Shown: one piece after another, positions 20,763 to 45,547 of the stretch | Numbering within the stretch: the stretch's first letter is position 1 | How the letters are laid out: each line of letters starts with the position of its first letter | DNA from: Amoeboaphelidium occidentale | Taxonomy: Eukaryota | DNA: 54,011 nucleotides | Assembly (NCBI GenBank): GCA_023515795.1 | Contig: JALGPX010000097.1 | Coordinates: 1 to 54,011 of the forward strand | Direction: 5' to 3' | Position numbers and translations under genes: made by a program | The notes under the pieces: model-generated | The model's database searches: none | What the model saw: only the letters and a program-made list of their open reading frames with translations | What the model was told of the DNA's origin: nothing

Positions 20763-23700
20763 ATGAGAACCACTCTATTGATACTTTTCATCTTTCATCT
20801 GCTTTTCCTTCATGTTGCATGCCTTGATCATATTAAAAGCTTCTTGTTACAGATCGACTTCACTGTAGTTCAGGCTATTATTGTTCAGAATGGATCGTTG
20901 TTCCACACAACTGGTATTGATATTGTACAGAAGGACACTGATACTGGACTCATAAGAAGAACATTGAGAGCACACAGTCAAGCTGTTCAGAATATGGTTC
21001 TGGTAGACAGGCAGACATTGGTTAGTGTTGCTTGGGATGATCTTCTAGTCGTGTGGGATCTGCCCACAGGATCGATCATCCGGAGAATAAATCTGACACC
21101 AAGGAATTTGTATCCGCAAAAGCTTTCATTCACTGATAGTCGTATAATTGTTGGAAATGCAGAAAATTCACTTACAATTGCGAACTATCAAACAGGGAGG
21201 ATTCTGAACACCCTTCAAACTGGCTCTGGAGTCTTGTCCATATTGGTTCACGATAATCTGATCTATATTGCAAAGAATGGTCCGGCTTATGTTGTAACAG
21301 TTTCTGCATTGAATGGTCTTCTTGAAGGCAGCTATGATGGTAACAGTCGACGCAGTTTGGACTCACATTTGTAGCACTTAATGCTCAGGTTAATCATATG
21401 ATCATATACAAGGATGTCCTTTATACTGGTGGTGACGGAAAAGTTGTGGTAGCTTGGAACGTTGATGATATAGCCATAATAAGGATGTTCAACGGTCATC
21501 AATTCAGCATTCAGTCATTGGTTGCTCAAAATGGGTACTTGTTCAGCGGAGACGCAAATTCCTTTATTTTCAAGTGGAATATTGAAACAGGCGAGTTAGT
21601 GAAAAGGTTTGTTCCGATTATGGAAGGTTTTCTATTGACGATGGCTATCGATGATGCCTTGTATTCCGGCTCAAGTGGTGCCATTGTCGTCAAAAGAGAT
21701 GTCGAGACTGGTGATATTCTAGATGTATTCTCTGGCTTTAACAAGAAACTTCGGGCAATAGCTCGCTGGAAGAATGTTTTAATAAGTGGGGGAGAAGATG
21801 GTAGAGCGCTGTTCTGGGATACAGATAAGAGTGTCGATGAGCCCTTTTGGGTATTATATCCTAACTATGGTTCAGTTTATGCGCTCATGGTACGAGATGA
21901 CAATCTTTACTCTGGAGGAATCAATGCTATTGTAGTGCAGTTTGACTTGATAAGTTTTCAAATGCAATTAAACTTTGTTGGGCACAACGATACTGTCCTT
22001 TCACTTGATGCAGATGATAAATACTTGTTTTCGGCAGGAAAGGATTTAGATATAAGAGAGTGGAACATAACTACTGGCGCTTCATTAAGACAATTTCTAA
22101 ATCATAACAGCGATATCAGTTCAATTCAGAAGCAATCAAATTTCCTTCTCTCTAGCAGCTGGGATACTACGGCTGTATTATGGGATTTAAATGGTGGAAC
22201 AATTTTCAAAGTATATCAAATCAAGGAAACTGTCTACACAGCTATCATGATCGGCGACATCCTGTACGTTGGTTGCTCTACTCTCGTAATGTTTGAAAAA
22301 CAATCCGGCTCAATGATCTTTACTGCTAACGGTGTTTCTGCTGTGTATGACGTTACTGCAGACTCTTTGTTTTTATACACAGCAGGTCTCGACCCAAATA
22401 TTTATGCTTTGCGACAAGATACACTTGAACTTGTAGCAGCGTTCAGAGGCCATTCAGACAGTGTGTTATCATTAGTGTTAGACAATACTGGGGTACTCTA
22501 TTCAGCAGCTTACGATGGAAGTATGAAGAAGTGGGATATGATATCAAAGAGAGTAGCATACTCTTTTGAACTTGTGTATCGAGGTGTGACTAGATTGCAC
22601 CAATTAGATGGACTATTAGTTGTTGGTCTAAGAAACGGAAGAATTAATGTTTACAACATTGACGATGGAATTGCTCAATATCTTATTCCTGGACACCCAA
22701 GAGCGATTACCTCTTTGATAACGTTTAACGGATCATTGTATTCCACGGGACTTGACGGCGCATTCAGAAAGTTTTCAGATTTGTCAAAACAACCGAGTAT
22801 TCTATTGAATACAACTTCGACTCCTTTGCTTTCTCTATCAAAAAATTCAAGGATGATGTTTCTTCTTGTTGGAGAGTCGGATATTATTTCATACGATCCC
22901 AAGATTTTTATGTTCACTAATTTTTCGTTCTCTATAGCAGTTCCACTTACATGTCTGGCTTCCACAGAGTCAATGATCTTTGCAGGCTCTCGATCTGGAA
23001 ACTTAATAGGCTGGGACATCTCATCACAAAATTTGCAATTCAATTACGCAGGGCATAACGGCCGTCTCAACGCCTTAGCTATAACTGATAAGAATATTTT
23101 TTCATCTTCTGACGATCAGACAATAATTCAATGGTCTATCGATAAAGTTGAGATCAAGCGAAAGTTTGTGAAATCATCTTCGAACCTTGGTCACTTAGGT
23201 CCAGTTAATGACGTATCTGTTTGTAACAACGTCTTGTTTTCTGCGGGATCAGATCTTGTTACTAGGCGATGGAATCTAGAGACTGGAAAGCATGAAGATA
23301 TTTACATTGGGCATTCAAAACCCGTTATTGCACTTCTCTGCTACAACGGATCTGTTTTCTCAGGAAGCCAAGATTTTTCAGTTCTGATGTATAGGCCATC
23401 ATTTCCACCGGCTGGATCATTTCCAACCACAACTTCCAGCTCTCTACAACGACCAACCAGGAGAGATCGCCAAGTAAGACTTTCTCAAAACGAAAGCACA
23501 GGAAACTCTTTTTCTGTGCTTCTGAGTGTTGTTTATGTTGTTATTTCTATTCTTGTGGGATGTGTATTGCTGATTTATGTATCGAACAGACTGCGCAAGA
23601 AAGAAATAAGTGAGCCGAAAAGTCCTGGAACCGATGATCAAAGTGGAAGAACTGACAGTTCCATCACAGATCTTGAGACCTTGATGAACACTTCTTTGGG

Positions 23701-24397
23701 ACTATCTAAGCACGCCGCATTAGAGTTTGATTCCAAAATGTTTCGACCTTCAAAAAAGATTGCTTCGGGAGGTGGAGGGGAGCTTTACATCTCTCAGGTT
23801 TTGAGTCCTTTACTAGCGAAAACATCTGGAAATGAGGTTATCCAGAAAATTGTTCATGTTAGGTCAAAGCAAGCAGAAGAAATTTTTCACAACGAGGTTG
23901 CAATCATGGTTATGCTGGGTGTATATCCATATTTTTGTAAGATATATGGCTACACTCTTCAACCTTTGTCGATGATTCTGAAGTTTTATACTGGCGGATC
24001 TCTCTCCGATTTTATAAAGAAAACATCTTTCACAGCTAGAGTTGATGTCAAGATATTAAGGGAGATAGCATCTGGGTTATCTGTAATGCATTCACATTAT
24101 CTTGCGCACTGTGATATGAAACCACAGAATGTTCTCGTGGAGATTATTGATAATGTTCCCTGTATAGCTATTACTGATTTCGGTATCACAAGGATTCTGT
24201 CTGATAAGATATTGGCTTCAAAAAAATTCAATGTGCTGAGTACTAAAGGTCTTAGTGTTCATTACGCGGCTCCTGAAGCATTTACAATTTTTAGGAGTAA
24301 AGTTTACGTGAAAGCAGATTTCAAAAAGTGCGACATTTATTCTTTTTCTTGTATTTTATATGAAATGTTGGGCAGAAGATTAACATGGAATCAATAG
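20763..24397 (+). CDS. WD40-ectodomain receptor-like kinase 1
   Basis: Signal peptide, many GH..WD/WN repeats, TM helix (VLLSVVYVVISILVGCVLLIYV), kinase GGGGELY / HCDMKPQN / DFG / APE. One 35-nt intron at 21340-21374. Confidence 0.9.
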
Positions 24398-24401
24398 ATC
24401 T

Positions 24402-25193
24402 CTAGCATGTTTTTGGCGTCTCCAAACCGCTCATTGTTGATCTAAATATTCCATGAATGCCATTCTCCTTCCAAACTTCACACGCTCTATAATTTTCTTT
24501 AGTTTCAACATTGAAAACTCTCTTGTTATCGCCCGATAATTGCTTGAATGCGTTACACTTGCCATGTCTGAAGCAATCCGAAGTCACAAAGACATCAAAC
24601 AAGACCTTTGATTCTGGTAGAACAAAGACAGACTGCAACCCAGTTTTAAAACCAGCGAAACGTGTATGACCAGACAGAAACTTCATGTATCTCAAGATCG
24701 TTTGTTCATCAATCTTGTAATCTAATTTAATTCTACGAATATCATGATGAAAGTTCCATAGAATCCCCGTGCAATTAAATTTTCTAGCTCTTCTGATTCT
24801 TGCCATGACAAACTTTCTCAATATTGCAGTATCATTGATTTTGATATAATTGGCAGAGATCTTGTCCTTGTAAGGAACACTCAGAGCCGAAGAGTCAAAT
24901 GCAGACTGATCCTTGTCCCATGCGTATATCAAAACAGCATGAAACCTGCAAAAGAGATTCTTGGCTTTAACAGGCCCAGCGATAGTCTCAGCAGACGCAA
25001 ACAGATAGTCAACGTGACGAGCATTTGTGATATTAACATTTTGACTATCAAATGTGATATCACACTTTGCAGTTTTGTTCCAATCCTTGGGAACAACAAC
25101 AAAATCACCATCATATGGAGCACATAGACCAACACCAGCCATAACTACGACAGCGACAAGATATATAACTCTAAAAGCACAAGGTTGCATCAT
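24402..25193 (-). CDS. Secreted GH114-like protein (paralog of the 3-1334 domain)
   Basis: Signal peptide. ARHVDYLF, RARKFNCTGILWN, GFKTGLQS and KRVFNVE align with the gene at 3-1334. Confidence 0.65.
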   Translation of the reverse strand: MMQPCAFRVIYLVAVVVMAGVGLCAPYDGDFVVVPKDWNKTAKCDITFDSQNVNITNARHVDYLFASAETIAGPVKAKNLFCRFHAVLIYAWDKDQSAFDSSALSVPYKDKISANYIKINDTAILRKFVMARIRRARKFNCTGILWNFHHDIRRIKLDYKIDEQTILRYMKFLSGHTRFAGFKTGLQSVFVLPESKVLFDVFVTSDCFRHGKCNAFKQLSGDNKRVFNVETKENYRACEVWKENGIHGIFRSTMSGLETPKTC

Positions 25194-25280
25194 TAATCTA
25201 AGATATTGTTACAGAGACGCTCAAACGCTGTGACACAGGGATGACTTGTGCAACCTGAAAACGACGTCGTAAATTTATTC

Positions 25281-25601
25281 CTAGAATCTGTCATCCTTAA
25301 AATCGTCCCACTTGAGCCTCCTTCTGGCCTCTTCCTTTGCCCATGCGCTCATTTCATCTTCAGGCTTGTAATAGTTTAGCACAAAGAACACTAAAGTCGT
25401 CCCACCAAAGAGATATTGCCAAATTATTTCCGGAAAAAGCTTCTTCCTTCTGTACCCTGGCGGTGCAGGCTAAACAGACAAAGTAATAAGACAAATACTT
25501 CAAAGCGAATGAATTACGGGTATATTGAAAAGGTGTCCAGTTGGTTCGTTGTAGCCTTTGTAATGGCCACCGGAAGCGAATCTCTTAAACACGCGGATCA
25601 T
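25281..25601 (-). CDS. NDUFB11: Mitochondrial complex I accessory subunit (ESSS/NDUFB11), absent from the ORF track
   Basis: Spliced reading with a 48-nt intron at 25470-25517: MIRVFKRFASGGHYKGYNEPTGHLFNIP|PAPPGYRRKKLFPEIIW...YYKPEDEMSAWAKEEARRRL. Matches the fungal ESSS pattern. Confidence 0.8.
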
Positions 25602-25687
25602 TCGAAGGAAACGAAGGACTGTGAAATAGAATCAGATTTTTAATTAAAGAATTACACAAAGATAGGACCATCCTCATGATTAACATG

Positions 25688-26345
25688 TCAGAACGTATCA
25701 ATATCAGCAGGAATGCCAAAGTTCTTCTCAAAAGCATCCTGATCCATCATGAACTTGTCTCTACAATAGGACTGCAGCGCAAAGATGTTTTCTGTCCACA
25801 AGTTGACGCTTTCCTTCAGAGTGGAAATCTGTTTCTTTTTTTCTTCGTACGCTTCCGGATCGTTAACTTCGTACTTTTTCAGTTCAGCTGAAACCTTTGC
25901 AACTTCGGATTCTAAGCGGGACAATTCCTTCAGCTTTTCGTCCCTTTCAGCGCTCTCAACTCTCAGCTCACTTTCCTTAGTAATTCTTTCTTCAACTTTT
26001 AAAAGTTCCTGTTCAACTTCTTCCAATTCATTCGTAAACTTTTCCAATTTGTTCTGTCTGGTGATTTTCAGTGTGGATGGGAATGACCAGAAGTAATTCG
26101 AAGTTCCGATTTTCTCCATTTGGATTTCACCATCAGCCACGAGCATCTCCAGAACTTCCTTGACACTCTGCACGACGATGCCCTTTTGCTTCGGTGCAAT
26201 TTTCTACATACCGAAATCGCAGTTAGCCTCGCCCTGAGGAATGTACCTCGAGTTCCTTAAGAGTGTAAAAGTCCTGAGACTCATGGAATATTTCCAACAT
26301 CTTCTTTGACTTTTCCTCAAATGATAATCCCTTCTTTTTTGTCAT
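25688..26345 (-). CDS. MND1: Meiotic recombination protein Mnd1
   Basis: MTKKKGLSFEEK...FYTLKELE|KIAPKQKGIV.QSVKEVL...EKIGTSNYFWSFPS...WTENIF. 43-nt intron at 26204-26246. Confidence 0.95.
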
Positions 26346-26428
26346 GTTTCGGAAACAGAAAAGAGTTGAAACAAAGCAAGCTGCGCGATCGCTTCAACGA
26401 GGTGTTCTGCTGTGAAGGCGTTTATTTT

Positions 26429-26896
26429 CTATTCAGGCTGTTGTTCCAGTTGCGCTTTCAAAGATTTGATCTCCATGTACGCTTGTGATAGTTCCGACAA
26501 GGCTTTCATGCATACCTTTTTACCCTTCTGAACTTCTTGTCTCAACTGAGATATTTCGTCTGATGTACTGGTTTGACTCATAATGATGTTGTATAAGTGA
26601 CCCCGTAATGTTCTTATGACAGTATCCTTCTTGATCAGCTGTGCTTTCAGTTGATACTTCTCTTTGATAAAATCTTCCATATCAGTACTTCGACGCTCGA
26701 TCATTTCTAGTCTTCTTTCAATGTCTGTTAGGGTACTATTAGCTTTGATATCACTATGTTGCTCAAGCTCATTCTGTAAGTGTTCCAACTTCTTCCGAAC
26801 TTGATCAGATTGTTCCTTGATCTTTTGTGTGCTCCACTTTGTGGTATAATCAATAACGGAGTTGGTATCACTTGTTTCAGAAGATGTATCATCCAT
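26429..26896 (-). CDS. Coiled-coil hypothetical protein
   Basis: 155-aa ATG-initiated ORF with heptad-like E/Q/K/L composition. Confidence 0.6.
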   Translation of the reverse strand: MDDTSSETSDTNSVIDYTTKWSTQKIKEQSDQVRKKLEHLQNELEQHSDIKANSTLTDIERRLEMIERRSTDMEDFIKEKYQLKAQLIKKDTVIRTLRGHLYNIIMSQTSTSDEISQLRQEVQKGKKVCMKALSELSQAYMEIKSLKAQLEQQPE

Positions 26897-26914
26897 TTTA
26901 AGAGAGAAAAAAGT

Positions 26915-27442
26915 TTATTGTATTCTTGTTATACTTGCAAACTGTATTGATGGATTAGAAACAAGACTGTAATCGTCTACAATAGTGAGCTTGATCGCAG
27001 TATAGTAATTTACACCTTCAAGTCTGAGCATTCTTAGAAAAGTGCCTCTTTTTGATTTCAGTAGAATACCATTAAAGTTTTTGTCTATAATCAATTCCAA
27101 AGCATTGGTACAATCAGCTGATAGAGCCAAAGTGTATGCATTGTTCCGAAGGACTTGAGGAAATCCTTCTGGTAATGTATTTAGAACCAAACATACTTTC
27201 TCTCCTGATAGTAATTCTAATGTCGTAACAGGTTCATAAAACTGCGTCGTGAATACCAAAGTGAATTTATCGTTTACACAATCAGAGGTATGTGAAACAA
27301 GTGACATATTAGACATTGACGTAAACTTGAATGCAGCACAAGACGTCGCATTATTATAATCGTTTATAGTAAACAGGGCTAGAGGTTCATCAACTTGCGC
27401 TTTGAGCAAATTTATGAAGAGTATCAGCAGAATCAATATCAT
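26915..27442 (-). CDS. Secreted hypothetical protein
   Basis: Hydrophobic signal-like MILILLILFINLLKA, then a beta-rich domain with four cysteines. Confidence 0.55.
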   Translation of the reverse strand: MILILLILFINLLKAQVDEPLALFTINDYNNATSCAAFKFTSMSNMSLVSHTSDCVNDKFTLVFTTQFYEPVTTLELLSGEKVCLVLNTLPEGFPQVLRNNAYTLALSADCTNALELIIDKNFNGILLKSKRGTFLRMLRLEGVNYYTAIKLTIVDDYSLVSNPSIQFASITRIQ

Positions 27443-27521
27443 CCCAATAACAAGATTCAACACAGAGATGGCCAATCGAGACACAGAATTGTAACATTGA
27501 ATAGGAATTCTTGTTATACAA

Positions 27522-28187
27522 ATGTTAAGAATAGCTTCTGCAGCAATTCTGTTATTGTTTCAACTTATAAACTGTCAACAGATCATCATAAAGACGCCTT
27601 ATGATGCCAAGACTGCACTGGCAGACGCTGCTGAACTAAGACCAGGTATCGCACCAGCAAACTTTTATCAATGGAGCGAAGACCCACTAGACCCAGAGAA
27701 TCACTTTCACGATCTGGATAATTCCCATCAAACTGTGATCAGTACATTGTTCAAAGATGGCATGATAAGTTTGAAGTTGCTGAATTTTTGGTATGTGAAC
27801 AAAGTAATAGGAGAGAATGTATTTGTAAATGCTACACAGGGTATCCAAGGAAATGTACATTTTGCGTGTCAGAAAATGGGTTCTTACTGCGCTGAAACCA
27901 TCAAAGAAGTGTTATCATCACGAAATGGAACTGCATTAGTATCTAACGACGTCTTGGAGGATCATTTGGGCGCATACACTAAACTGTTTGTAGAGATTAA
28001 GGTTTATTCTGATAAGATTATGAATGATGTTCAAGTCGAGCAGCATGAACAACTTATTGACATGATCGATTTGTATAGTCACAATATCTTGAACGAAGCA
28101 TACAGAAGAGGAATTCCGCTTGCAACATTGACTGCCTGGTTAGATGAGCAGAATGCTGCTGCAAATGCTACAGCTCCAAACTCTTAG
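27522..28187 (+). CDS. Secreted hypothetical protein
   Basis: Signal peptide MLRIASAAILLLFQLINC in a 221-aa ORF. Confidence 0.65.
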   Translation: MLRIASAAILLLFQLINCQQIIIKTPYDAKTALADAAELRPGIAPANFYQWSEDPLDPENHFHDLDNSHQTVISTLFKDGMISLKLLNFWYVNKVIGENVFVNATQGIQGNVHFACQKMGSYCAETIKEVLSSRNGTALVSNDVLEDHLGAYTKLFVEIKVYSDKIMNDVQVEQHEQLIDMIDLYSHNILNEAYRRGIPLATLTAWLDEQNAAANATAPNS

Positions 28188-28338
28188 ATACCTTCGAGGA
28201 GCATTGTTCTTGAATGGAAACTGTCGTGATGTATGATTCGATCCCTTGTTGCTAATCCAACGATCATGTTGCCTTTAGAAAAAGAATATAAACAATGCTC
28301 TCCAAACTTCTCATTTAATTCCAGAAAAGTATCCTAGA

Positions 28339-28668
28339 ATGAGCTTTAACTCAAGTACGCCTGCACAAATCCACCTATCTCGCACAGAAGAGAAGCTTGT
28401 CAAAGCAGAACAGTCACTAGAGAGAAAGATCAAGAGGTTATTCATGCCAAAAACAAGAACAGATAATATCACATTGATGGAGAACTATGATGATTATGAC
28501 CCAACAGCTGAAAATCTACGTGTTAAAGTTACGAAACCAAAGTCAGGAAAGATGTCTAAGTTTGTTTCATCAGATTCGCTTTCAAGCACGTCTTCATCAT
28601 CCTCTAATGAGGAACATACCAAAAGGATTAATCCTGTCGCTAGTTTCCTTGCTGGCAGAAAAGTCTAA
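28339..28668 (+). CDS. Small Ser-rich hypothetical protein
   Basis: 109-aa ATG ORF followed by AATAAA at 28681. Confidence 0.5.
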   Translation: MSFNSSTPAQIHLSRTEEKLVKAEQSLERKIKRLFMPKTRTDNITLMENYDDYDPTAENLRVKVTKPKSGKMSKFVSSDSLSSTSSSSSNEEHTKRINPVASFLAGRKV

Positions 28669-28771
28669 CATACTATTCTTAATAAAACAATTTGCATATT
28701 ATGAATCGTGATTAGGACGTTTGTTTCATCTAGCAGGATTCAGCAGAATTTCTTATTTAGAATCACTTGAT

Positions 28772-29332
28772 ATGCGACTTTACGCTCTAATTGCACTGAT
28801 ATCATGTACATATTGTTATTTTGGAAACAGAGTGGCGTTTGTAACAGACAGCGATCTTTCAACTTGTGCTGCAAGAAGACCTATGCCGTATCCAGGATCT
28901 GGTTCTGTGTATCCATTGGGTTTTGACGATCCAGACGCATGTTCTTCAAAACAAGCTGATACAGGATTCTTTCATGAGCTTCGCGATAAGCCTGCGCTAG
29001 CTTTCAATTATCGTTACAACTCAGATTCTTTCATATGGCAGTTCACATGTCTTGTTCAGATTGATATTGGAAATCCAAGTACCAGCATTGTTGGTGCTAC
29101 AGATAACTGCGACGTACGCGATCCTAAAGTTTTAAAGTTTTCTCTGAACAATGAGAATGGTCTTGTTACAGCAACTGGAGCTGGAGGTAAACAATACAGA
29201 ATAATGAAAGACAAAAGCTCAAAGTTAATGATTGCAAAACTCATAAGTCAAGACGTATCTGATGCTGCAATATTGGCGAATGATCAACTAGAAAAGGTTA
29301 TATTCATTAATCACACACCGATAGAAGCGTAA
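28772..29332 (+). CDS. Secreted hypothetical protein
   Basis: Signal peptide MRLYALIALISCTYC and four mature cysteines. Loosely similar layout to the 26915-27442 protein. Confidence 0.6.
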   Translation: MRLYALIALISCTYCYFGNRVAFVTDSDLSTCAARRPMPYPGSGSVYPLGFDDPDACSSKQADTGFFHELRDKPALAFNYRYNSDSFIWQFTCLVQIDIGNPSTSIVGATDNCDVRDPKVLKFSLNNENGLVTATGAGGKQYRIMKDKSSKLMIAKLISQDVSDAAILANDQLEKVIFINHTPIEA

Positions 29333-29335
29333 ATC

Positions 29336-30004
29336 TTAATAGTGACCACTCTGCATGAATTCTTCAACTGAAATAAAGCCATCATTGTCAATATCGTCTT
29401 CTTTTAGAACGTGGTCAACCATGTCTTCCATCGCAATCAATAATTTTCGTCTGGAATGGTGACCAACGTTTTGTCTCACTTGTTCGTCTTCAGGCGTAAA
29501 CTCTTCGTTCCAATGCGAAAATGCGTGTAACAGTTCACTGCCGTCAAGATAACCGTTATTATCTTCATCGTGTAAAGAGAACCAGTAGTACAGCATATCA
29601 AGATCTTCATCTTCTGAGCTGAAGTCAACAATATCATTCTTGATGGACTCAATCTTTTGAGCAATTAATGGATCATCATGAACTACATCAGCTTCTTTCA
29701 ATTCTTGTTCTATATCCTTCTTGATCATGTTTACTACTTCTTTTTCTGGCACGACACCATGTTTAAGTTCTTGCAGGTGCATTTCAACTGGATCTGCAAC
29801 ACCGTCCATTGTAGGATCTTGATCTTGCACTACTTTTCTCATAAAGTCTTCAGCATGTAGAAGATAATGACTTGCTAGGCCCACACTGCCTGGTGGCCTG
29901 TTTAATCGATGAGGATAACCTGATCCGTGAGCGTAAGGCCTAGACTGAATTGCAAAAGTTAGAGCTGTAATGATAAGAGCAAAATTGAGTGCAAATGAAG
30001 ACAT
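29336..30004 (-). CDS. MCFD2-like secreted EF-hand protein
   Basis: Signal peptide, YYWFSLHDEDNNGYLDGSEL and VL.EDDIDNDGFISVEEF EF-hands. Confidence 0.8.
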   Translation of the reverse strand: MSSFALNFALIITALTFAIQSRPYAHGSGYPHRLNRPPGSVGLASHYLLHAEDFMRKVVQDQDPTMDGVADPVEMHLQELKHGVVPEKEVVNMIKKDIEQELKEADVVHDDPLIAQKIESIKNDIVDFSSEDEDLDMLYYWFSLHDEDNNGYLDGSELLHAFSHWNEEFTPEDEQVRQNVGHHSRRKLLIAMEDMVDHVLKEDDIDNDGFISVEEFMQSGHY

Positions 30005-31470: not shown

Positions 31471-31583
31471 ATAATCGAGTATCTAGTGAAATTAATTAAC
31501 TAAATGACAATTTTTGAATTCGAAACAGTTTCGCTTGACTGTTTGCTCCTCAAGCTTTTTTCAAAGCGACGACATCGAATAAA

Positions 31584-32625
31584 ATGAAAATTACAGTTAA
31601 AACTTTAACACAGGCGGTTATCCCGCTTACCGTTGAACCTTCAGAAAAAGTACGTTCCATAGCGCAGCAGCAAAACTTAATTTGAAGATTTCCAGCGTTA
31701 AGCAAAAGATTGCAGCACAAACCAAAGGAGAAACAGACAAAATGAAGCTGATTTGCAAAGGAAAAGTTTTAACAGATGAACAGACCATTGAAGACTTTGG
31801 AATCGTTGAAGGGGACTTTTTGGTTTTGATGGTTGTGAAGGCAAAAGCCGGTGGATCATCTTCAGCCGCTGCACCTGCGCCGACTTCAACTGTAGCGCCT
31901 AAAGCAGAGGAAAAACCAAAAGCTGCTCCAGCCCCACAAGCAGCACCTGCTCCATCATCAACATCCTCGTCTACCGGAGCTCCAGCAGAGTCACTTTTAA
32001 AGGGAAAAGAATTGGAAGATTCTGTGCAATCGCTAGTTGAAATGGGATACTCCAAAGAAGAAGTTCTGTCTGCTATGCGCAAAGCTTACAATAATCCTCA
32101 CAGGGCATTTGAGTATTTGGCGTCTGGTATGGCTGGTGGTGTTGAAGAAACAGCTGAAACGCAAGGAATTTTTCCAAGCGAGGTACCTTTAGGCGAGGAA
32201 GATCATGCAGAAATTGCTGGCATGGAAGGTCTTCCAAACTTGGACGAAATAAGACAATTAGTTCAACAACAACCACAATTACTCGAACCACTGCTGCAAC
32301 AATTGGCACAAACAAATCCTGATATTGTTAGAGCTATCCAACAAAATCCAGAAGCATTCTTGCAATACCTCAGTGGTGCAGCAGGAGCAGGAGGTCCAGG
32401 TCCTGAAGGCGCAGGTCAAGGTAAAAGTTTCGCGCTGTGAGTTTGAACTTTTCTTATTTATTAGTTACTGTGACTTTGACACCAGAAGATGTTGAGGCTG
32501 TTGAAAGGCTATGTGCATTAGGATTTGACAGGAACATGGCCATTGAAGCGTACATTGCATGTGATAAGAATGAGATGATGGCTGCTAATTACTTGTTTGA
32601 GAGCAACGATGATGATTACAATTAA
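31584..32625 (+). CDS. RAD23: UV excision repair and proteasome shuttle protein Rad23
   Basis: UBL (MKITVKTL...KLICKGKVL), UBA, XPC-binding (LLEPLLQQLAQTNP) and second UBA (AYIACDKNE..AANYLF). Introns at 31650-31687 and 32421-32464. Confidence 0.95.
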
Positions 32626-33764: not shown

Positions 33765-36700
33765 ATGAAACAACATGAACTATTCAAAGCCTGTGTAGTA
33801 GTATCATTCAGCTACTTCGTATCTGGTCTTGAGCATGACAAAAGCTTTCTAGTTCAAGATAGTTTTGGAAGCGTGGCCTGCTTAGCTGCTTACAACGATT
33901 CTGTGTATATCGCAAATTCAAACGATGTAGTTCAAAGGGATACTGAAACAGGAGATATACAGAGGACATTCAGAGCTCATCAGAACTCCATTGTATCGTT
34001 TATTATTTCTGAAGACTCTAGGATGATTACATCGGCGTACGATGATTTGATAATTATTTGGAACCTTCATACTGGTTCGATCTTGAAAAGGATTTTTGTC
34101 GGAGCATCCAATACCCAGATCCAGAGCATTTCATATCAGAACGGAAAGATTATAATGGGAGGAGCTGATCGCAAAGTAAGGCAGCTTGATTTGGCCACTG
34201 GTCGAGTATTGAAAACTTTTGGTAAGAGAAATGCCTTGAACGCACACTAAAATTCCTCTAGATCTCAATGAATTTATCATGAAAGTTTTAGCACAAGATG
34301 ATCATGTATTCGTTGCAAAGACAATGGCGCCCTTTGTCATCAAAATGTCGATTTTGGATGGTAGACCTTTGATGTTTTACACAGGCCACTCTGAGTCGTC
34401 GGCTTCTATCCACTTGTATGAGAATATTTTGTTTTCTGGGTCAGTAGATTCATCTATACTGAGTTGGGATGAGAGCAGCGGGGTATTGATTCGATCATAT
34501 CAAGCGCATTTCGGCTTATTGTACGTGGTCGTTGTCTACGACGGACTTCTTTACTCCGCGGGCCTAGACAGAAGAGTGATTCAGTGGAATATTGAAACAG
34601 GCCAAATAATCAAAACATTTTCCTCATCGTCATTTACACAAGCAATAATGTCTTTGGCATATTTACCCCAGACGTTGTTTTCTGGATCTGCTGATGCTAC
34701 AGTAGTGAAATGGAATACTACTACTGGTGATGCTTTGATATCATACAAACGGAACTTTAGGAAACAGATAGTTGTTGGTGCATGGAGAAATTTGGTTTTT
34801 AGCGGCGGAGAAGACGTTACAATCAGGATCTGGGACTCATCTATTGATAGTTTGGATTCTTTCTCAGTGCTCTTTACCGATACAGAGTTTGTCTTTGTCT
34901 TGCACGTTTACAAAGATTTCCTTTTTTCTGGTGGACCAAGCAATTTATTACGCCAGTGGGATCTAGTGGAGTTAGAGTTGACGGCAAAGCTTGAAAGTTA
35001 GTTTTGCGCATAATGGAAATTAAGATTTAGGTCCCACATCAGGCTTCTCTGCCATTGATTCAGATCAGTCGTTTGTTTATGCTGGAGGGCCTCGTGCGGT
35101 TATTTATCGATGGAATATTTCATCTGGAGCTTTGACAAAGTCTTACGTGGGACATGCCGCTGCAATTCAATCAGTGATTATTAATCCTGCATCAATGTAT
35201 TCAGGGTCTATGGATAGTACAATGCGAATCTGGAATATTGAGTCTGGTGAAGTTGTCCGAACTTTCAACAGTAATTTCCGTTTCGATTCAAATAACATTC
35301 TAGGTTTTTACGTTGTTTATGATGTGTTGCTTTCTGAAGATCTTCTCATCGCATGCGCGTTGTCAAGCATGGAGGCGTTTTCATTGACGTCTGGCCAGAA
35401 GACAATCTTTTTGGAAGGTCGGTCCTATCAATCGATTTTATAATTTTTAGAGACTTTTGCATGCACTTGTATTGTGTCAAACGGAAACCGTGCATTCACG
35501 GCTCAAAGCGATGCTTCAATAAGAGTGAGGGATTTGTTTACTTTGAGTATCCTTGAGACGTTCCTAGGGCACTTAGATTCTGTGATTTCCCTCTGCTTTG
35601 ACGACTCATACAATCTGTACTCGACTGGATTCGACGGATCAATTAAGAAATGGAACATGGCCACAAGAAGAGTAGCTTTTTCCTTCGAAGACAGGAATAA
35701 TTCAGTGACAAGTTTATATGCAAACGAAATTAACTTGTTCGTCGGGTTGAGAAAAGGCTCTATCGTTCAGTACAACGTTGATAATAGTTACTTTATGCAA
35801 GCAGCAAATATTCACACTGGTGTGGTTTCTTTACTTCTCGCTGATGACGATTTCATTTATTCCTCTGGGATAGATGGTTTGATCATCCGTCACTCGGCTA
35901 TTGAAATTCAGAATCATACGATAATGCACAATACAGAGGGCAAAAATCTAAGGGGTCTTGCATTTACTAAGTTCCTTATAATTTCGATTGAAGAGGATAC
36001 AAAGATATTGATCTTACCTAAGAACAATACCGGTCTAGTAAGAAAGACAGACGTTCAAATTCCTTTAGTTTGCATTACCGCAAGAGATTCAGAGTTAATT
36101 GCTGGTTCCAGATCAGGAGGTATATATGCTTGGGACATCGAGACTCTGAAATTAAGCTTCGAATTGAAAGGTCATTATTCTCAGGTTAACAGCCTTTTGC
36201 TCGTTGAAAATTGGCTGTTTTCTGCTTCTAGTGACAAAAGTATTATAATGTGGTCATTGCAAGATAAAAATGTGATTTACATTTTCCAAAGAAGATCTGC
36301 CACCGCTTTGGGTCATTTAGGTCGAGTCAATGATGTCACATTTTGTTCAAGTACATTGTTCTCTGCTGGAGCAGACCTATCTGTGCGCCGATGGAACGTT
36401 CAGTCAGGACGTCACGAAGGTGTTTACTTTGGTTTCTCAAAGCCTGTAACAAATGTTCTTTGCTACAATTCCTCACTATTCGCAGGAAGTGAAGATTTTT
36501 CTGTTTTGATGTTCAATCCCAGTCTTCCTCGACAAACAATTTCTTCAATATCAAGCTCAAGGTCTTCAAGATCAGCAAGTACTGAAAGACGTCGAATGGT
36601 CGTGAAGGGAGCGCCTCTTGAAAATTCTAGGGCGATCAACGGTCAAATCCTTCCATATGCCGTTATTTCTGTTATTGTTGTGTTACTGGTCGTAATTTCA

Positions 36701-37516
36701 GTATTCTTATTATACAGAAGAGCGAAAGTAAAGAGCTTTTCGCCATATTCATTAACGACGACTTCCATGACCGCTAGTCAGACTGTTACAGATTTGGAAA
36801 CTGTCGTCAACTCTGTCTTGGGTATCTCAAAACATGCCGCGTATCTCTGGGAAAGTTCCGTTGTTGCTAAAAGTAAGAAACTAGCTACAGGAGGCGGTGG
36901 TGAATTGTTTCTTGCAAAGTTGATGGATTCGAATCTAAGAAGGAGATACGGCGATCAAGTGGTTCAGAAAATTACGTTTGTCAAGAGTAATCTTACGGAA
37001 GATGCTTTTTATCAAGAAGTCGGAATAATGATCATGTTGAATTCTTTTCCCCGCTTCTGTAAAATACTTGGTTACACAGAGAACCCTCTCTCAATGATTT
37101 TGAAGTATTATTCGGATGGTTCACTTCATGAATGGCTTATGAAGAATCGTTACAGCTCCGCAATTTTGTTGAAAATCACGAAAGAAGTGTCTGAAGCATT
37201 ACAGACAATGCATTCATACTATTTGGCACATTGCGATTTAAAGCCTCAGAATGTTTTAGTACAAGTTGAAAAAGGTATTCCTTCTTGCTCTTTGACCGAC
37301 TTTGGTATTGCCCAAATTCTTTCGGATACCATCATTGCGGCGAAGGCATTCAATTTAATCAGCCTAAGAGGTCTTTCAATTCCTTTTGCTGCACCAGAAG
37401 CTTTCAGTCATTTCAGATCAAAAAAATATAGTGGGGCTGATTTCAAGAAATTTGACGTGTACTCTTTGGCATGTGTTATGTACGAAGTAATCAGTAGAAA
37501 AACGCCATGGTCTTGA
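33765..37516 (+). CDS. WD40-ectodomain receptor-like kinase 2
   Basis: Signal peptide, WD40 repeats, TM, kinase HCDLKPQN/DFG/APE ending RKTPWS*. Introns 34222-34261, 34997-35030, 35271-35303 and 35418-35450. Confidence 0.9.
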
Positions 37517-37749
37517 AACTGTTCACTTGCGATTGCAATAAAAGCTATGAATTTACCTAAATAAATCCATCGGAGTTCTTAATACGGTTGGTATCTGACT
37601 AATTATTACCCTAGATAGTCTGATCGAACTTCAAAGTGATCTGTTTCATTCTTGAATGGCAGCGGACTGAAGTCAAACATTTGTTGAACGATCGTTTCTG
37701 GTGGTAGATCAAAGACGTCATAAAGAGGCAGTTTCAACTTATTTCAGCC

Positions 37750-40700
37750 ATGTTCAGCTTACTTATTTGGATATTTGCTACTCTAACATTGAGCACTTCA
37801 CTTCAACATGAAAAGAGTTTCTTGGTGCAGGACGGTGCTTCAGTGATCACTACAATAGCTATTTACCAGAACTCTATACTACTGACGTCTTCCAATGATA
37901 TCATACAGAAGGATATTGGAACAGGTCTGCAACAAAGAGTATTTAGAGCTCATACAAATCAAATTCTGTCGTTTGGGCTGACCAATGATTCCAGAATGAT
38001 AACGGCTGGTTGGGATGACATGATCATCGTTTGGGATTTGAAATCTGGATCAATAATGAAGAGGATATGGTTGGGATCATCTGACACAAATGTCCAGAGT
38101 GTATCATTCTGGAATGAACAGGTTATAACTGGAGGTGATGATGAGAAGATCAGAAGAGTTGATTTAACAACCGGAAGGGTGAGCAGGACCGTGGGTAAGT
38201 TATAAGTACAATTTTGCTGAGTCCCGTAGATTTAGGAGAACAAATCTTTTGTGTTCTTGCATATGGTGATTTTGTGTTTTTGGGCAGAAAGAGCTTTGAT
38301 GCTGAGATTGCGAAAATCCGTCTTCTGAACCTGAACTTCGAAATTGGATTAGATGGGCATTCTAATACTGTCATCTCATTACATCTTGATAACAACATCT
38401 TATTTTCAGGATCAGTTGATACTACAATTATAGCATGGAATCCGGACACAGGACAGCAACTACGAAAATACTTTGGGCACGTTTCGTATGTTTGGGCTTT
38501 AAAAACAGTCGGGGAACAGCTTTATTCTGCTGGAAATGATCAGGTCATATTCAAATGGAATATCAATGATGGCACTTTGATCCAAAAGTTTCCTCGGTAT
38601 CATATCAATAAGATCACGAGTTTGGCCATAAAAGATGATTCAATCTTTAGTGGAGCATTTGATACAGAAATCGTAAGATGGAACTTAACCACATATCAGT
38701 TCATACAAGTGTACAAAACCAGCCGATTAATGCTAAGGTCTGTCGTTGTCTGGAATGATTTTGTTCTAAGTGGAGGTGACGAGTCTGTGGTTGCAATATG
38801 GGATAAGTCAACAGATAGCATAGAGCCATTATCAATTTTAAGTGGCCATCTCAAACCTATTAATACCATGTTTATTTCTGGAGACTGGCTTTTTACAGGA
38901 AGCAGTGATGCCACGGTAAAACAATGGGAGTTGATAGACCTAACACAAATTGGCGAGTTTATCGGTAATTTCCAGCTCTATTTGCTAACATTCAGGACAT
39001 TTCGATACTGTTTCGGCCTTGACAGTTAGCGAAAATATCCTTTACTCCGGAGGAAACGACTTGGAGATAATCTTGTGGAATATCTCATCGAAAGCGAAAA
39101 TTGACGGGTTAAACAGCCACACAGATGAAATAACATGCTTGACAGCAGAAAAAGAGTTACTGTTTTCGACATCGTATGATGAAACTGTAAAAATTTGGAA
39201 TAGGGATACAGGAACTCTAGTTCAAAATTTTCAAGGTGATTTTCGGCGGTAAGAGACTGATTTTTTTAGCCACAAACTTTGTTAAAGCAGTTGTTGTACA
39301 GGAAGATCAAATGGTCATTGGCACTTACGGCGGATTATTCAAAATTCAGATTTCAACGCTTTCAAATATAGCGGAACAACTTGGTAAGATCTTTATAGCA
39401 CATTTAACACATTTAGAGAATTTTGCATGTACTAGTATAGTCTGGAGAAACCCTCGTATTTACAGCGCATACGTTAACGGCGTGATAAAAGTAAGCGATT
39501 CCGAAAATCTGAACGTTTTGGGATTCTTTTATGGCCATCAAAATATTGCTTCTTCTCTGTGCTTTGATACCTTCGGAACATTATTTTCGGCAAGTTTCGA
39601 TGGATCTACCAAGAAGTGGGATTTGGTAACAAGAAAAGTCGCATTTTCATTTGAGAATAGGCGAAACTCTGTCACTTCCCTTGCCGCTTCTGGAAACTTT
39701 CTTTACACGGGATTACGGAATGGCTTAGTCAACAAGTATGTCACAGACAATGCGATGCTGTTAGTATCCAGCAAGTTTCACGAAAAAGATGTTACATCAT
39801 TGATTATTGGGGGAGGTNNNNNNNNNNNNNNNNNNNNNAACTTTCTTTACACGGGATTACGGAATGGCTTAGTCAACAAGTATGACACAGACAATGCGAT
39901 GCTGTTAGTATCCAGCAAGTTTCACGAAAAAGATGTTACATCATTGATTATTGGGGGAGGTCGGCTGTATTCTACAGGTCTTGATGGACTGTTAATCAGT
40001 TCAAATTTTAGTTTTGATCAAGAACCTTCAAGAGTCTTCATTTCTCCCAACGCAACACTGAAGAGTATTATATTTCATTTAAACTCATTGGTCTTCATTG
40101 AGAATGATAGACTGATACTTCAGTATCCATTTAATGGCACCATGTCTACAACTATTTTTGTTGAGTCCAATGTTCCGATTACTTGTTTGGCGGCCGATGA
40201 TGAAAGGATTTATGCAGGATCCATATCTGGCGCCGTACTTTCTTGGAATGCTAATAATTCTTTATTCCAATATGAACTTAAAGGTCATACATCGAAAGTT
40301 AATTACATTCTTCTGAATTCAAATCACCTCTTCTCCGCTTCTGATGACCAGAAAATAATTAAGTGGTCATTAATTGATAGAGTTACGACCTTAGAACTAA
40401 AGCGAAATTCACCTAACACACTCGGACATTTGGGTCCAGTTAACGCATTGTCGTCATGCAAAGAATATTTGTTTTCAGGAGGTTCAGACCTTACTGTGAG
40501 GCGATGGGACGTTGAAACAGGAAAACATATCGATGTCTATTTTGGCTTTTCCAAAGTTGTAACAAGCGTTCTGTGTTTTAACAATTCGGTGTTTGGTGGT
40601 AGCGAAGACTATTCTGTGCTGCAATTCAGACCGGGGTTTAAGAAAGATGAATCGACATTCTCCACCCCAGAATCTACTAAAGCTTTTGATAACAGAAAAA

Positions 40701-41626
40701 GAACAAAAGCTGTCGCAGCACCTGCAAAACAATCTTCTTCAAGAACTGAATCCCTCCCCTTAATCATATCTTTTTCAGGTGTCGCTTTCTTGATATTTCT
40801 TGTAGCGACGATCTTTGTTTATTTGAAGAAGTTTGCTAGCAGAAAATCACCTTTAGAATCCAAAAAGACTGAGACTGACGATTGTGGCTTCACGGTTACA
40901 GATTTACAAACTGTAGTCAACACCGTTTTGGGAATATCTAAACATGCTGCATTCGTTATCCCAAATTCAGCATTAGCCAAGCAAAAGAAGATTGCTACTG
41001 GAGGAGGAGGCGAAGTTTATTTGGCAAGAATAATGGAACCTGACTTGAGGACAAAGCACGGTGATGTTGTGATCCAGAAGTTTGTTTTCATTAAGAACAG
41101 CGCCAGCGAGGATTCATTCTACCTGGAAGTAGGCATTATGATCATGTTATTGGCATATCCTCATTTCTGTCAGATAATCGGCTACACTGAAAATCCTTTA
41201 TCTATGATTTTGAAATTCTATCCCGATGGATCTTTGGAAAGCTGGCTACGTAAAAATTCCTGCAACAAGAATGTCATTGGTAAGGTTTGCAAAGATATTG
41301 CAGGAGCTTTACGTATCATGCATAGCCTTCATTTGGCTCATTGTGATATTAAGCCTCAGAATGTTCTCATTGAAGTTATGAACGGCGTTCCTTCATGCTT
41401 CTTGACCGACTTTGGTATTACGCAAGTTCTTTCTACTGAAATAATTGCAGTCAGATCATTCAATGCGATTAATTTGAAAGGTCTATCGATTCCTTATGCC
41501 TCACCAGAAGCTTTCAGTCATTTTAGGTCAAAAGCTTACACAAGAGTCGATTTCAAGAAGTATGATGTTTTCTCGTTGGCTTGTATTATGTATGAAGTAG
41601 TAACGCACAAAGCACCATGGTCTTGA
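37750..41626 (+). CDS. WD40-ectodomain receptor-like kinase 3
   Basis: Same architecture, ending HKAPWS*. Introns 38195-38229, 38965-38995, 39236-39269 and 39384-39416. N gap at 39818-39838 with a duplicated flank. Confidence 0.9.
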
Positions 41627-41822
41627 AACTGGTTTAGTTCGCGCATAAACCATGAAATAGAGTATCATCAATGATTAGGATCATAATGGCTACCATGAAA
41701 CTTCAGCCTAGATAAATCAGAGACGCTTTGCTTCAAAGGCGCTGTAAAACTCCGTGTGTGCAGTCTAAACTTACACACTTCAAACGCTTGCCGTCAAACA
41801 ACTTTATTTCACACTTATTAAC

Positions 41823-44800
41823 ATGTTGCTCTCGTTGTTGACAATATTAGCCTTTATCCCACTGGCTTCATTACTGCAGCATGAGAAGAGCTTCAAGTTT
41901 GATAACGCTGCCTCTTCTGTATTTGCTCTAGTATTGTACAATCGATCATTGCTGATAACATCCTCGAATGATGTAGCACAGATTGATATTGAAACAGGAA
42001 TCTTACAGAGAAAGTTCATTGCACACACAGCTCGTTTAAGCAGTATCTTGGTTGTCAACGGCTCCAGAATGATCACATCAGGGTCAGATGACATGATCAT
42101 CGTTTGGGACTTGGTAACTGGTTCAGTGTTGAAAAGAATCTGGCTACAATCTTCAAGAACATCTCCTTCAGATTTCTCATTAGATGGCAATAATTTGTTT
42201 GTAAGTGGTACCGATAGTTGGGTGAGGATCGTAAACATGGTCTCTGCGAAAGTTGTGCAGAGCTTCAGTAATTTCGTTCTTTGCCGCTGATCATTATTTT
42301 AGATGTTAATGCAGCTGCAAATGTGATTGTTGCACAAGATAACTACTTTTATGTTGGCAAGGAAGAAGTAAGCTCTCAGCTGGAAAAGTATTTTGTCACC
42401 GGATCGTTGATCTTGGACTATATGGGCCATACCAATTCTGTATTCTCTTTACTTCTCTGGGAGGAGACGCTATTTTCTGGATCGTCTGACAGCAAAATTA
42501 TCTGCTGGGATAAAGCCAATGGCCAAATGATCAGAACTTATCTCGGAAGCACTGATGCAACCTTTGTTTTATCTATATATGATGATTATCTATACTCTGC
42601 CGGTCAAGATCGTTTCATTATGAAGTGGAATATTGAATCGGGAAGTATTGTTGAAACTTTTCCGAAACCTCACACTGGTTTCATCTGGTGTTTTGCCTTC
42701 GAGCCAGGTAGTTTATTCTCTGGTTCTAGTGACACGACTGTCATCAGATGGGACCTTAATACTTCTTCAAGAGTATTTACATACACTGGCCGTAATATAC
42801 AGCTGAGATCCGTTGTATTGTGGAGAAACTTGGTTATAGCAGGTGGTGATAATCTGGCCTTGACAATTCAAGATACGACCCGCAATTCCATCTTCCCAAT
42901 TGAGGTGGCTTCAGGCCATTCAAAAGACGGAATAGTTTGTATGATTTTACTGGATGATGTTCTTTTTTCAGGAGGTGTCGATGCAACTATCAGAAGTCGA
43001 AATTTAATCGATTTCACTGACCTTAACATTTACTATGGTACTTTGGTTAAATATGGGTTCTAACCTTTAAGGCCATTATTACACTGTGACCTCGCTTGTT
43101 TCAGACCTTCTGTACCTGTATTCTGGCTCTGTAGATACTACCGTTATCCGATGGAATATCTCCTCAGGGTTAATCGACAAAGAATACATTGGACATGATG
43201 CAATGATACGAACAATTAAAACTAGAGAGAATTTGCTTTATTCTGGAGCTTCTAATTCTAAAGTGTTTGTGTGGGAAAAAGAAAAAGAAAACACTTTTAC
43301 TATTCTCTATTGTAAGTGTTGACTGAATTTTAACAGTTTAGCTTCCACTGACATCAGCTCAATTTTCATTTATGGCGATGCTCTTCTGATCGGCGCTAGG
43401 GGCATATCCTCCGTGTCTGTTATTACTTACGAGATTTTAGCTTGGCAACAAGGTGGTTTCTTATCTATGTTAATTAACTTTGGGTAGAACCTCATCAATG
43501 TATGGAAATAGTTGCGACTGTAAATCGGATCTATACAGCACACAGTGATGGTCTTATAAGAGGAAGGGATATTGGATCGCTTACTATTATAGAGTTTTTT
43601 CAAGGGCACACTGATACGGTGGTTTCAATAAGCTTAGATAATGCGAACGTTTTATTTTCAACTTCATTCGATGGCTCGGTAAAGAAATGGAATATGGCAA
43701 CTAGAAAAGTTTCATTTTCTTATGAGAATCGAAATGGTTCCGTTACAGCATTGACTGCGTCTAATGGTATCTTGTTCGTAGGTACAAGAGAAGGTATTAT
43801 CAATTCTTTTATCATTTCAACTTCTTACATCATCAAATCTACCAATTTCCATAAAAGTTCTGTGACATCGTTAGCGCAATCTGATGATTCAATTTTCTCT
43901 TCTGGGATGGATGGTAGGATCATTGGGCTCGATAAGGTAGACTATTCGAGCTCAATTGAATTGTATAATGCTGAATCCTTTCCTATCACAACTATGACCT
44001 TGAATGCAATGAATTTGATTTTGGTTAAAGATGAAAACGAGATCATTATTCTTCCCAGATTGAACTTTAGCTTTGATGCCAGAAGTATTGAGTCTAATCT
44101 GCCGCTTGTCAGTATTGTAGCCAATGGAGATATGATGTTTGCTGGCTCAAGAACAGGTTCAATTATTGCATGGGATGTAAAGTTTTTGGAAACTTCATTC
44201 ACCCTTGAAGAACACAACTCTCAAGTTAATTTCCTTTTAATAACAGATTCTTTCCTGTACTCAGCATCAAACGACAAAACCATCATTAAATGGTCTATAG
44301 AACGAAGGCTTCCAACGGTGTCATTCAAGAGGCTCTCTGCTAGTGCACTAGGTCATTTAGGTCCTGTTAATTCCTTATCTTTATGCAAAGGCACTTTGTT
44401 TTCTGCTAGCTCTGATTTGACCACACGCCGATGGAATACACAGACTGGAAGACACGATGATGTATATTTTGGTGCTTTAAAGTCTGTTACAACTGTTGTC
44501 TGTTACAATGGATCTGTTTTTGCTGGCAGTGAGGATTTTTCTGTACTTATGTATGTACCGATTCTACCGGTAAATGCGGATACAAAGATCGCATTGAAAA
44601 CTTCAAGAAACAACCTACGCAGCGTGAGAACTAAGATTGCTATTAGATCAACCTCTTTGAGCTCAGAAACATCACAGACTGCTCTTATTTCCGGTGGAAT
44701 ATTTGGCGCCGTCATACTTGCAGCAGCTGTTATGGCTTATTTCTTCCTTTTATCAAAACGAAAGATGAGAAAAACTGGTAAAAATTCATCAACCGAACAA

Positions 44801-45547
44801 GAATTCTCAGAATTCACTACCGATTTAGATACAGTTGTGAATACAGTGATCGGAATATCTAAACATGCTGCTTACTTAGTTGAGAACTCCAGCATCGGTA
44901 CTGTCAAGAAAATTGCAAGTGGCGGCGGAGGGGAAGTTTATTTAGCTCGTGTTATGAAATCTTTTTCGAAAGAAAAAACCGGAGTTTTGGTTATCCAAAA
45001 GAAAATATTCGTGAAGGATCGCATAACTGAAGAAGCTTTTTATCAAGAAGTTGGAATTATGATAATGTTATCACCATTTCCAAACTTCTGCCGTATTATT
45101 GGTTACACAGAGAACCCTTCTTCAATGATCTTGCAATACTATCATGGTGGTACTTTGCAGAGCTGGATCCAAGGCAACAAGATTGGTCAGGCTGTTATAA
45201 TGAAGATCTCGAAAGAAATTTCATCAGCTTTAAATGTGATGCATTCCCATTATTTGGCTCACTGTGATCTTAAACCTCAGAATGTGCTAATTGAAGTTTT
45301 TGATGGAATTCCCACTTGCTATTTAACCGATTTTGGTATAACGCAAGTTCTGTCAGAAAAGATTTTAGCGTCTCGTGCGTTCAAAGTTATCAATCTTCGG
45401 GGATTATCTGTATGGTATGCTGCTCCAGAGGCTTTCAGATGGTTCAGGACCAAAGTATACAATGGAGTAGACTTTAAGAAGTTTGATGTCTATTCTTTTG
45501 CGTGCATTGTCTTGGAGCTTGTGACCAGAAAAACTCCATGGAGCTGA
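41823..45547 (+). CDS. WD40-ectodomain receptor-like kinase 4
   Basis: Same architecture, ending RKTPWS*. Introns 42268-42302, 43038-43071, 43312-43341 and 43453-43487. Confidence 0.9.

Follow-up and report, generated by a model that had tools for sequence, protein, structure and literature searches.

The window analysed in this work, a compact eukaryotic contig of 54,011 bases from Amoeboaphelidium occidentale (GC content of about 40%, introns short), contains four paralogous genes, referred to here as g1 to g4, which all lie on the + strand and encode proteins of about 1,200 amino acids (aa) with one common layout: a hydrophobic leader, a WD40 propeller region, a stalk, a transmembrane (TM) helix and a kinase domain. 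The main observation concerns the kinase. Subdomains X–XI, i.e., the helices G, H and I with a conserved Arg, are absent from g1–g4 and from 219 of the 232 kinase domains of their family, and the catalytic residues of subdomains II–IX are 95–100% conserved in these 219 cut members. Helices G–I and the salt bridge joining them to the APE motif count among the hallmarks of the eukaryotic protein kinase, and the family-wide loss of these helices is more surprising than the layout itself. The gene structure, the order of the domains, the cut and the conservation of the catalytic residues can be observed directly; based upon them, the g1–g4 proteins would work like receptor kinases that fail in one defining feature of the canonical kinase. 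A family without helices G–I, whose catalytic residues are nearly invariant over more than 130 diverged members and which has full-lobe relatives, offers a ready comparison for the role of this subdomain, and nature has here tested which parts a kinase may dispense with. It also provides concrete receptor candidates for host recognition by the aphelids, which are parasites of algae and the sister group of fungi.

Kinase domains lacking helices G–I

All four kinases matched the Pfam Pkinase profile only up to position 198 of 263. A preliminary description of these genes, made from the sequence, had correctly recognised a kinase in each of them but had overlooked the absence of helices G–I. In a structural comparison with BRAF, the kinase model ended at BRAF residue 657 (Z 17.2, root-mean-square deviation 3.0, 183 residues aligned), and about 65 residues of the conserved kinase fold were missing. 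The extent of this loss was determined in the family as a whole, where 243 domains scored at least 150 bits, 13 of them with a tail; after 11 partial domains were dropped, 232 remained (219 cut, 13 full). The cut members ended at a similar point, 169 of the 219 terminating 18–22 residues after the helix-F Asp and 203 within 30 residues of it, with long unrelated tails in six, whereas the full members continued for at least 79 residues beyond this Asp. By source, the cut and full members numbered 23 and 0 in A. occidentale, 9 and 0 in Paraphelidium, 2 and 3 in A. protococcarum, and 181 and 10 in environmental records. The transcriptome-derived Paraphelidium proteins with full coverage were cut in nine of nine cases.

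A downstream exon that had been missed, or read-through of the stop, was ruled out as the source of the cut. A tail profile built from ten full-lobe sequences detected no tail exon when all six frames of the window were scanned (best E 0.62), and reading on for 600 nt past the stops revealed no tail either (best E 0.54). The next gene follows g1, g2, and g3 after only 4, 233, and 196 nt, respectively, leaving no room downstream. The stops of the cut kinases are both TAG and TGA at the same position. The members that retain helices G–I include P0290, P0312, and P0329 from A. protococcarum, and P0137, P0144, P0150, P0186 and others from environmental records; they have H-N-D in the catalytic loop in 8 of 13 cases and a juxtamembrane Pro motif in all 13, and they are candidates both for natural controls and for co-receptors.

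Conservation of the catalytic residues

Within the 219 cut members, the beta3 Lys, the helix-C Glu, the catalytic-loop His, Asp, and Lys, and the DFG Gly were invariant, and nearly the same held for the catalytic-loop Asn (218), the DFG Asp (215), the APE Glu (208) and the helix-F Asp (217). When the comparison was limited to 137 members sharing less than 60% mutual identity, the catalytic Asp, the loop Lys and Asn, and the DFG Asp were still 98–100% conserved. Because the residues responsible for the chemistry are so strongly conserved, decay or a plain pseudokinase is disfavoured, and the sequences suggest that the cut kinases probably bind ATP and transfer phosphate. The residue before the catalytic Asp was Cys in 182 cut members and Arg in only three. 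As the Arg-Asp (RD) pair was likewise found in none of the 13 full members, the non-RD state is a trait of the family. The catalytic loop H-x-D-x-K-x-x-N is of the Ser/Thr type and not of the HRDLAARN type that marks tyrosine kinase receptors, and the glycine loop is atypical (G-G-G-G-E-hydrophobic).

In complete kinases, an arginine of helix H–I normally pairs with the APE glutamate. An Arg located six residues past the APE Glu (APE+6) was present in 157 of the 219 cut members and in none of the 13 full members (92 of 137 versus 0 of 11 after thinning to 60% identity), and this residue, on the helix that follows the APE motif, may stand in for the arginine that was lost.

The WD40 ectodomain and the predicted receptor layout

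Significant matches to Pfam WD40/propeller families as well as to Pkinase were observed in all four proteins. The WD40 region of g1–g4 spans about 850 aa; the earlier assignment to WD40 thus stands, with this length in place of the 880 aa first given. Based upon Pfam and an AlphaFold model of the paralogue P0002, the blades are four-stranded, have about 40 residues with GH..WD motifs and are arranged seven to a propeller. The P0002 ectodomain was modelled with 83 strands (mean predicted local distance difference test, pLDDT, 88; predicted TM-score 0.65; 45-sequence alignment), and as P0002 is without the N-terminal strand, the full proteins likely have 84 strands, or 21 blades. An ectodomain of 21 WD40 blades in three propellers, which is likely on this model, had already been proposed at the outset, and a match of the whole ectodomain to the structure 6JP6 agrees with it. 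A Foldseek search with the ectodomain returned multi-propeller WD40 proteins of low identity and low TM-score.

Among 16 near-full paralogues, conservation was highest in blades 1–2, 14, and 19–21 (mean column identity 0.51–0.61) and lowest in blades 4, 11–12, and 17 (0.23–0.26), with a period of roughly seven blades. Cysteines numbered 5–9 per ectodomain, and one Cys pair in blades 20–21 was invariant in all 16 paralogues, Cys being common at this position of WD40 repeats. The top-face loops were not more variable than those of the bottom face (0.37–0.41 versus 0.27–0.31), and for this reason a binding face could not be assigned.

Hydropathy (rather than SignalP) identified in each of g1–g4 a leader of 17–21 residues ahead of the conserved motif L.H.KSF, in agreement with the signal peptide and mature start that had been described. 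In near-full sequences of the family, a hydrophobic leader of 17–39 residues preceded the conserved motif in 13 of 18, one had a start of four residues and in four the motif was unmatched. A strong hydrophobic segment was located within aa 908–961 of g1–g4, with 3–6 Lys or Arg in the 15 residues after it and 0–2 in those before it, as expected from the single TM helix followed by basic residues that had been noted earlier. The stalk between the WD40 region and this helix is Ser/Thr-rich, and in the P0002 model a disordered stalk, a TM helix at 882–904 and then the kinase were observed. The sequences and the model make it very probable that these are type I single-pass receptors with the propellers outside and the kinase inside.

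Gene models

Joining of the exons by their coordinates confirmed the four genes of about 1,200 aa, three in tandem and one apart, that had been proposed (Table 1). The proteins share 34–42% pairwise identity. All introns in g1–g4 are 30–40 nt long, GT..AG and in phase 1, and their positions are homologous across g2, g3, and g4. All four models contain one stop only, at the end of the frame. The WD40 repeats, the TM helix and the kinase are all encoded on the last exon in each gene, which bears out the expectation that WD40 and kinase are on one transcript.

The models were compared with contigs from three public runs of a single study on a related strain, mostly 91–98% alike, for which the library type is not on record; the contigs that skip introns are probably transcripts. 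Four predicted introns were skipped: among the joints listed, the contigs leave out 35, 31, and 34 nt at introns 1, 2, and 3 of g3, and in all three runs they leave out 30 nt at 43312, the third intron of g4. Further joints in this list coincide with predicted exon edges, as contigs end at 34996 and begin at 35449 in g2, and begin at 42303 and end at 43038 in g4. From 38008 to its stop, g3 is covered by spliced contigs that overlap one another, a single contig across the whole gene being absent, and the match stops at the stop codon (41626) with nothing beyond. The ectodomain of g1 is covered by a 92%-identical relative. In g3, the contigs of all three runs skip the stretch 39686–39839, and as 48 aa are duplicated here around a gap of 20 N, the true length of this protein is about 1199 aa.

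Table 1. Positions of the g1–g4 genes and of their predicted parts in the 54,011-base window.
Feature	Position	Strand	Remarks
g1	20763..24397	+	leader, WD40 x21, stalk, TM, cut kinase; 1199 aa; single terminal stop
g1 predicted signal peptide	20763..20822	+	20 aa before LDHIKSF; hydropathy, -3/-1 residues
g1 predicted intron	21340-21374	+	inferred from frame and GT..AG alone; contig confirmation lacking
g1 predicted TM helix	23519..23575	+	aa 908-926; Kyte-Doolittle 2.99
g1 kinase	23750..24397	+	non-RD (HCD); ends 20 residues past helix-F Asp; helices G-I absent
g2	33765..37516	+	layout as g1; 1203 aa; 4 introns
g2 introns	34222-34261, 34997-35030, 35271-35303, 35418-35450	+	
g2 predicted TM helix	36656..36712	+	aa 918-936; Kyte-Doolittle 3.15
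g2 kinase	36869..37516	+	non-RD; ends 19 residues past helix-F Asp
g3	37750..41626	+	layout as g1; 1247 aa as assembled, about 1199 aa without the assembly duplication; 4 introns
g3 introns	38195-38229, 38965-38995, 39236-39269, 39384-39416	+	
g3 assembly artefact	39687..39838		20-N gap and duplicated flank; net 144 nt, 48 aa
g3 predicted TM helix	40763..40819	+	Kyte-Doolittle 2.65
g3 kinase	40979..41626	+	non-RD; ends 19 residues past helix-F Asp
g4	41823..45547	+	layout as g1; 1196 aa; 4 introns
g4 introns	42268-42302, 43038-43071, 43312-43341, 43453-43487	+	
g4 predicted TM helix	44696..44752	+	aa 914-932; Kyte-Doolittle 2.42
g4 kinase	44903..45547	+	non-RD; ends 19 residues past helix-F Asp

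Distribution and evolution of the family

Members of the kinase family were gathered in two ways: a profile was run against 1.84 billion representatives (the best 150 matches being listed), and a word-indexed search gave 112 matches. The closest named proteins are hypothetical proteins of A. occidentale (39% identity over the long exon of g1 and up to 73% in the kinase). All named members are from aphelids, viz. at least 26 from A. occidentale (a lower bound on its paralogues; at least 22 of the WD40 type), five from A. protococcarum and 11 from Paraphelidium (isoforms included); the remaining members are environmental records. The WD40-type paralogues of A. occidentale, consisting of the 22 or more named proteins and g1–g4, are 35–45% identical. 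Among 59 longer matches that were scanned, the same kinase occurs together with ectodomains of several kinds (WD40, Kelch, NHL, ephrin-receptor-like/TNFR, and EGF). When a full-lobe member served as the query, none of the relatives found was a named one.

When 148 family domains left after thinning were placed in a FastTree phylogeny with 14 outgroup domains, the family lay on one side of a branch with a support of 100, as the suggestion of a receptor family of its own had implied. The same branch had a score of 99 in the Shimodaira–Hasegawa-like approximate likelihood ratio test when six outgroups were used. The outgroup domains were few and taken from search matches, plant-like kinases among them. 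The structural neighbours of the kinase, TNNI3K (Z 17.5), BRAF (Z 17.2), and IRAK1 (Z 17.2), point to the tyrosine kinase-like (TKL) and tyrosine kinase folds, and a protein-atlas query with the kinase returned generic kinase clusters only. With respect to the origin of the cut, unconstrained trees required 4–5 changes, and a single origin was not rejected by the approximately unbiased test (p-AU 0.43), for which 40 of 162 rows were used and P0329 was left out as a long branch.

In the Paraphelidium proteins P0099 and P0116, a single WD40 propeller at the N-terminus precedes TNFR/ephrin-receptor-like cysteine repeats. This arrangement resembles that of CRINKLY4, the resemblance being likely a convergence. 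From their lengths and ends, the public models P0214, P0223, P0241, and P0262 look fused to neighbouring genes or rearranged, and database counts of the family are therefore probably unreliable.

Possible function of the cut kinases

The g1–g4 proteins could be surface sensors with a minimal non-RD kinase that works once a partner covers the exposed C-lobe, a reading of the sequences and models that we regard as plausible while stopping just short of calling it probable. A ligand, most plausibly on the algal host or another cell, would bring the receptors together in clusters. The open face of the cut C-lobe would be shielded by another receptor, by a relative with the full lobe or by a partner in the cytoplasm, and the kinase would then phosphorylate Ser/Thr targets. 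Kinases with a reduced C-lobe can be active, SteC after phosphorylation and OspG on partner binding, according to the accessible part of PMC13395416. If the cut kinases are active, we lean slightly towards their needing such a partner. Many ectodomain types on one kinase fit what is expected of a diversified sensor family. That the parasite uses these receptors in recognising other cells or the surfaces of algae is credible, if not quite probable. A broader proposition, that these proteins represent a large undescribed class of aphelid receptor kinases that lost helices G, H, and I yet remained active, with the new Arg and/or a partner as substitute and the triple-WD40 members as the main host-surface sensors of A. 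occidentale, appears doubtful.

Several results weigh against the sensor reading or the numbers behind it. N-glycosylation sequons were not enriched in the ectodomains of 16 paralogues (100 observed versus 137 in shuffled sequences), and the extracellular location hence gains no support from them. Between strains, the ectodomains (91–92% identical) did not diverge clearly faster than the kinase (94%) or the neighbouring genes (90.5–98.6%), so that an arms race is not indicated at this level. None of the 26 named A. occidentale members, versus three of five from A. protococcarum, keeps the full lobe, and a full-lobe co-receptor is thus not seen in A. occidentale. Additionally, the ratio of cut to full members is biased to window-like sequences because the search profile was seeded with such cut members, and the APE+6 Arg count is not independent of shared ancestry and could stem from relatedness.

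The absence of a full-lobe member among the named A. occidentale proteins would also suit a self-sufficient kinase, which folds and is active without a partner, its Arg-bearing post-APE helix replacing helices G–I and clustering serving only to drive trans-autophosphorylation of the Ser/Thr-rich juxtamembrane region. In its favour, the AlphaFold model has a pLDDT of 74–97 through the last helix with the partner absent, the APE+6 Arg is confined to cut members, and SteC, a reduced kinase, is reportedly monomeric and active after phosphorylation (PMC13395416, from the part of its text available). However, pLDDT says nothing on stability, and we regard this explanation as unlikely. Helices G–I normally bury one face of helix F and supply substrate docking, and an uncovered face is therefore expected in the cut kinase. 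The missing residues of the conserved fold and the atypical glycine loop are also compatible with a pseudokinase or nucleotide-binding switch, in which ATP would be bound, phosphate not transferred, and a separate full kinase controlled by allostery. Pseudokinases usually lose at least one catalytic residue, and the near-complete conservation of the four central residues across the 137 diverged members makes such a switch improbable, even though plant non-RD receptors act with RD partner kinases (PMC3411088, in its accessible portion).

A different place or task, with the propellers in the lumen of the endoplasmic reticulum or the food vacuole, or serving adhesion or uptake during phagocytosis of the host cytoplasm, is rated slightly lower still. 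A signal peptide and a TM helix leave the compartment unfixed, and the two signs given above, sequon enrichment and fast divergence of the ectodomain, are both lacking; however, the number of WD40 paralogues and the variety of ectodomain types suit a sensor repertoire better. It is very improbable that the cut is an artefact or decay, i.e., a missed 3' exon, stop read-through or pseudogenes. For the strain of the window itself, an RNA run is not on record, and the intron of g1 was placed by frame and splice signals alone. Nevertheless, the same end point is shared by three aphelid species with a name and by relatives from environmental records, different stop codons occupy it, a downstream exon has neither room nor signal, the contigs match g3 up to its stop and no further, the reading frames are intact and the catalytic residues are invariant. 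Surface sensors completed by a partner remain the reading that we prefer.

Neighbouring genes

Two small proteins encoded in tandem (11916-12284 and 12534-12953, both on the – strand) each have a hydrophobic N-terminus and a pair of LysM domains, and they are candidates for secreted chitin-binding proteins. A predicted secreted GH114 glycoside hydrolase (24402-25193, –) has its stop 4 nt from that of g1, and because of this spacing the 3' untranslated regions of the two genes would each overlap the opposite coding sequence. The gene at 50044-52372 (+) encodes a hydrophobic N-terminus and many ribonuclease-inhibitor-type LRR_6 repeats, and is broken by N and a frame change. A membrane-anchored M13 (neprilysin-type) peptidase is encoded at 15103-17482 (–); near 17070 its gene contains a gap of N whose flank is duplicated, an assembly artefact of the kind also present in g3. 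Several short proteins encoded within 26915-29332 begin with a hydrophobic stretch and matched no Pfam family (26918-27559, –; 27522-28184, +; 28772-29329, +). Ordinary neighbours occupy 1141-10967, 17998-20692, 25688-26203, 29339-30004, and 31637-32440; they include DUS3L, two TBC RabGAPs, a GT61 glycosyltransferase, Mnd1, an EF-hand protein, Rad23 and one protein which, by motif, we take to be an RFC small subunit.

Comparison with known systems

Mikhailov et al., in Curr Biol in 2022, reportedly described an expansion of receptor-like protein kinases in aphelids. The organisms are the same and the gene family is very likely the same: all named members of the g1–g4 clade are aphelid, the clade is an expanded one of TM kinases in this group, and g1–g4 belong to the expansion by both taxonomy and layout. 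WD40 ectodomains may already be listed in that work, and the cut may be mentioned there; novelty is limited mainly by this possibility. That the expansion is in print is also indicated by the accessible part of a citing paper (PMC10608142). Our literature search, which excluded Mikhailov et al. 2022, found no description of aphelid WD40 ectodomains or of the cut kinase. A survey of TM kinases in 128 species reports only 54 of them in 18 fungi, and the available portion of its main text mentions neither aphelids nor WD40 or propellers (PMC10463195); at 2 of the 13 places where WD40 occurs in one of its supplements, no aphelid name was found. For A. protococcarum, a dual RNA-seq study deals with receptors of the host and, in its accessible part, not with receptors of the g1–g4 type (PMC8657485).

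An extracellular seven-bladed propeller, named WD40, is found on the single-pass receptor kinase CRINKLY4/ACR4, according to the part available of bioRxiv 10.1101/2020.08.10.245050. The single propeller of CRINKLY4 carries a disulfide in every blade and is accompanied by a cysteine-rich domain, whereas g1–g4 have three propellers of the GH..WD type and a cut kinase, and the plant kinase domains used as outgroups fall outside the g1–g4 kinase clade. Because the aphelid expansion is in print and the extracellular propeller of CRINKLY4 is known, the architecture is less new than the preliminary description had supposed.

XA21, FLS2, and EFR, members of the plant RLK/Pelle lineage, differ from g1–g4 in having leucine-rich repeat ectodomains and complete kinases. 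They are non-RD pattern-recognition receptor kinases and, as far as the accessible text goes, share with g1–g4 a signal peptide, a repeat ectodomain, a TM helix and a kinase in which Cys, and not Arg, precedes the catalytic Asp (PMC3411088). The non-RD motif of g1–g4 is no more than a parallel to these plant receptors.

For the ectodomain, a comparison is provided by the yeast Trm7–Trm734 complex (PDB 6JP6 chain A), which aligned over 1015 columns (E 6.7e-32, 13% identity, TM-score 0.29). Trm734 is a protein of three propellers. This complex is intracellular and has no TM helix or kinase, unlike g1–g4.

For the kinase, Bud32/PRPK and RIO provide examples of minimal kinases with reduced C-lobes. 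SteC of Salmonella and OspG of Shigella likewise keep the catalytic core while the C-lobe is shrunken, and are activated by a partner or by phosphorylation (PMC13395416, in the part available). All of these are soluble bacterial effectors or atypical kinases, whereas the g1–g4 family is TKL-like and membrane-anchored, has a full activation segment with APE, and possesses close full-lobe relatives.

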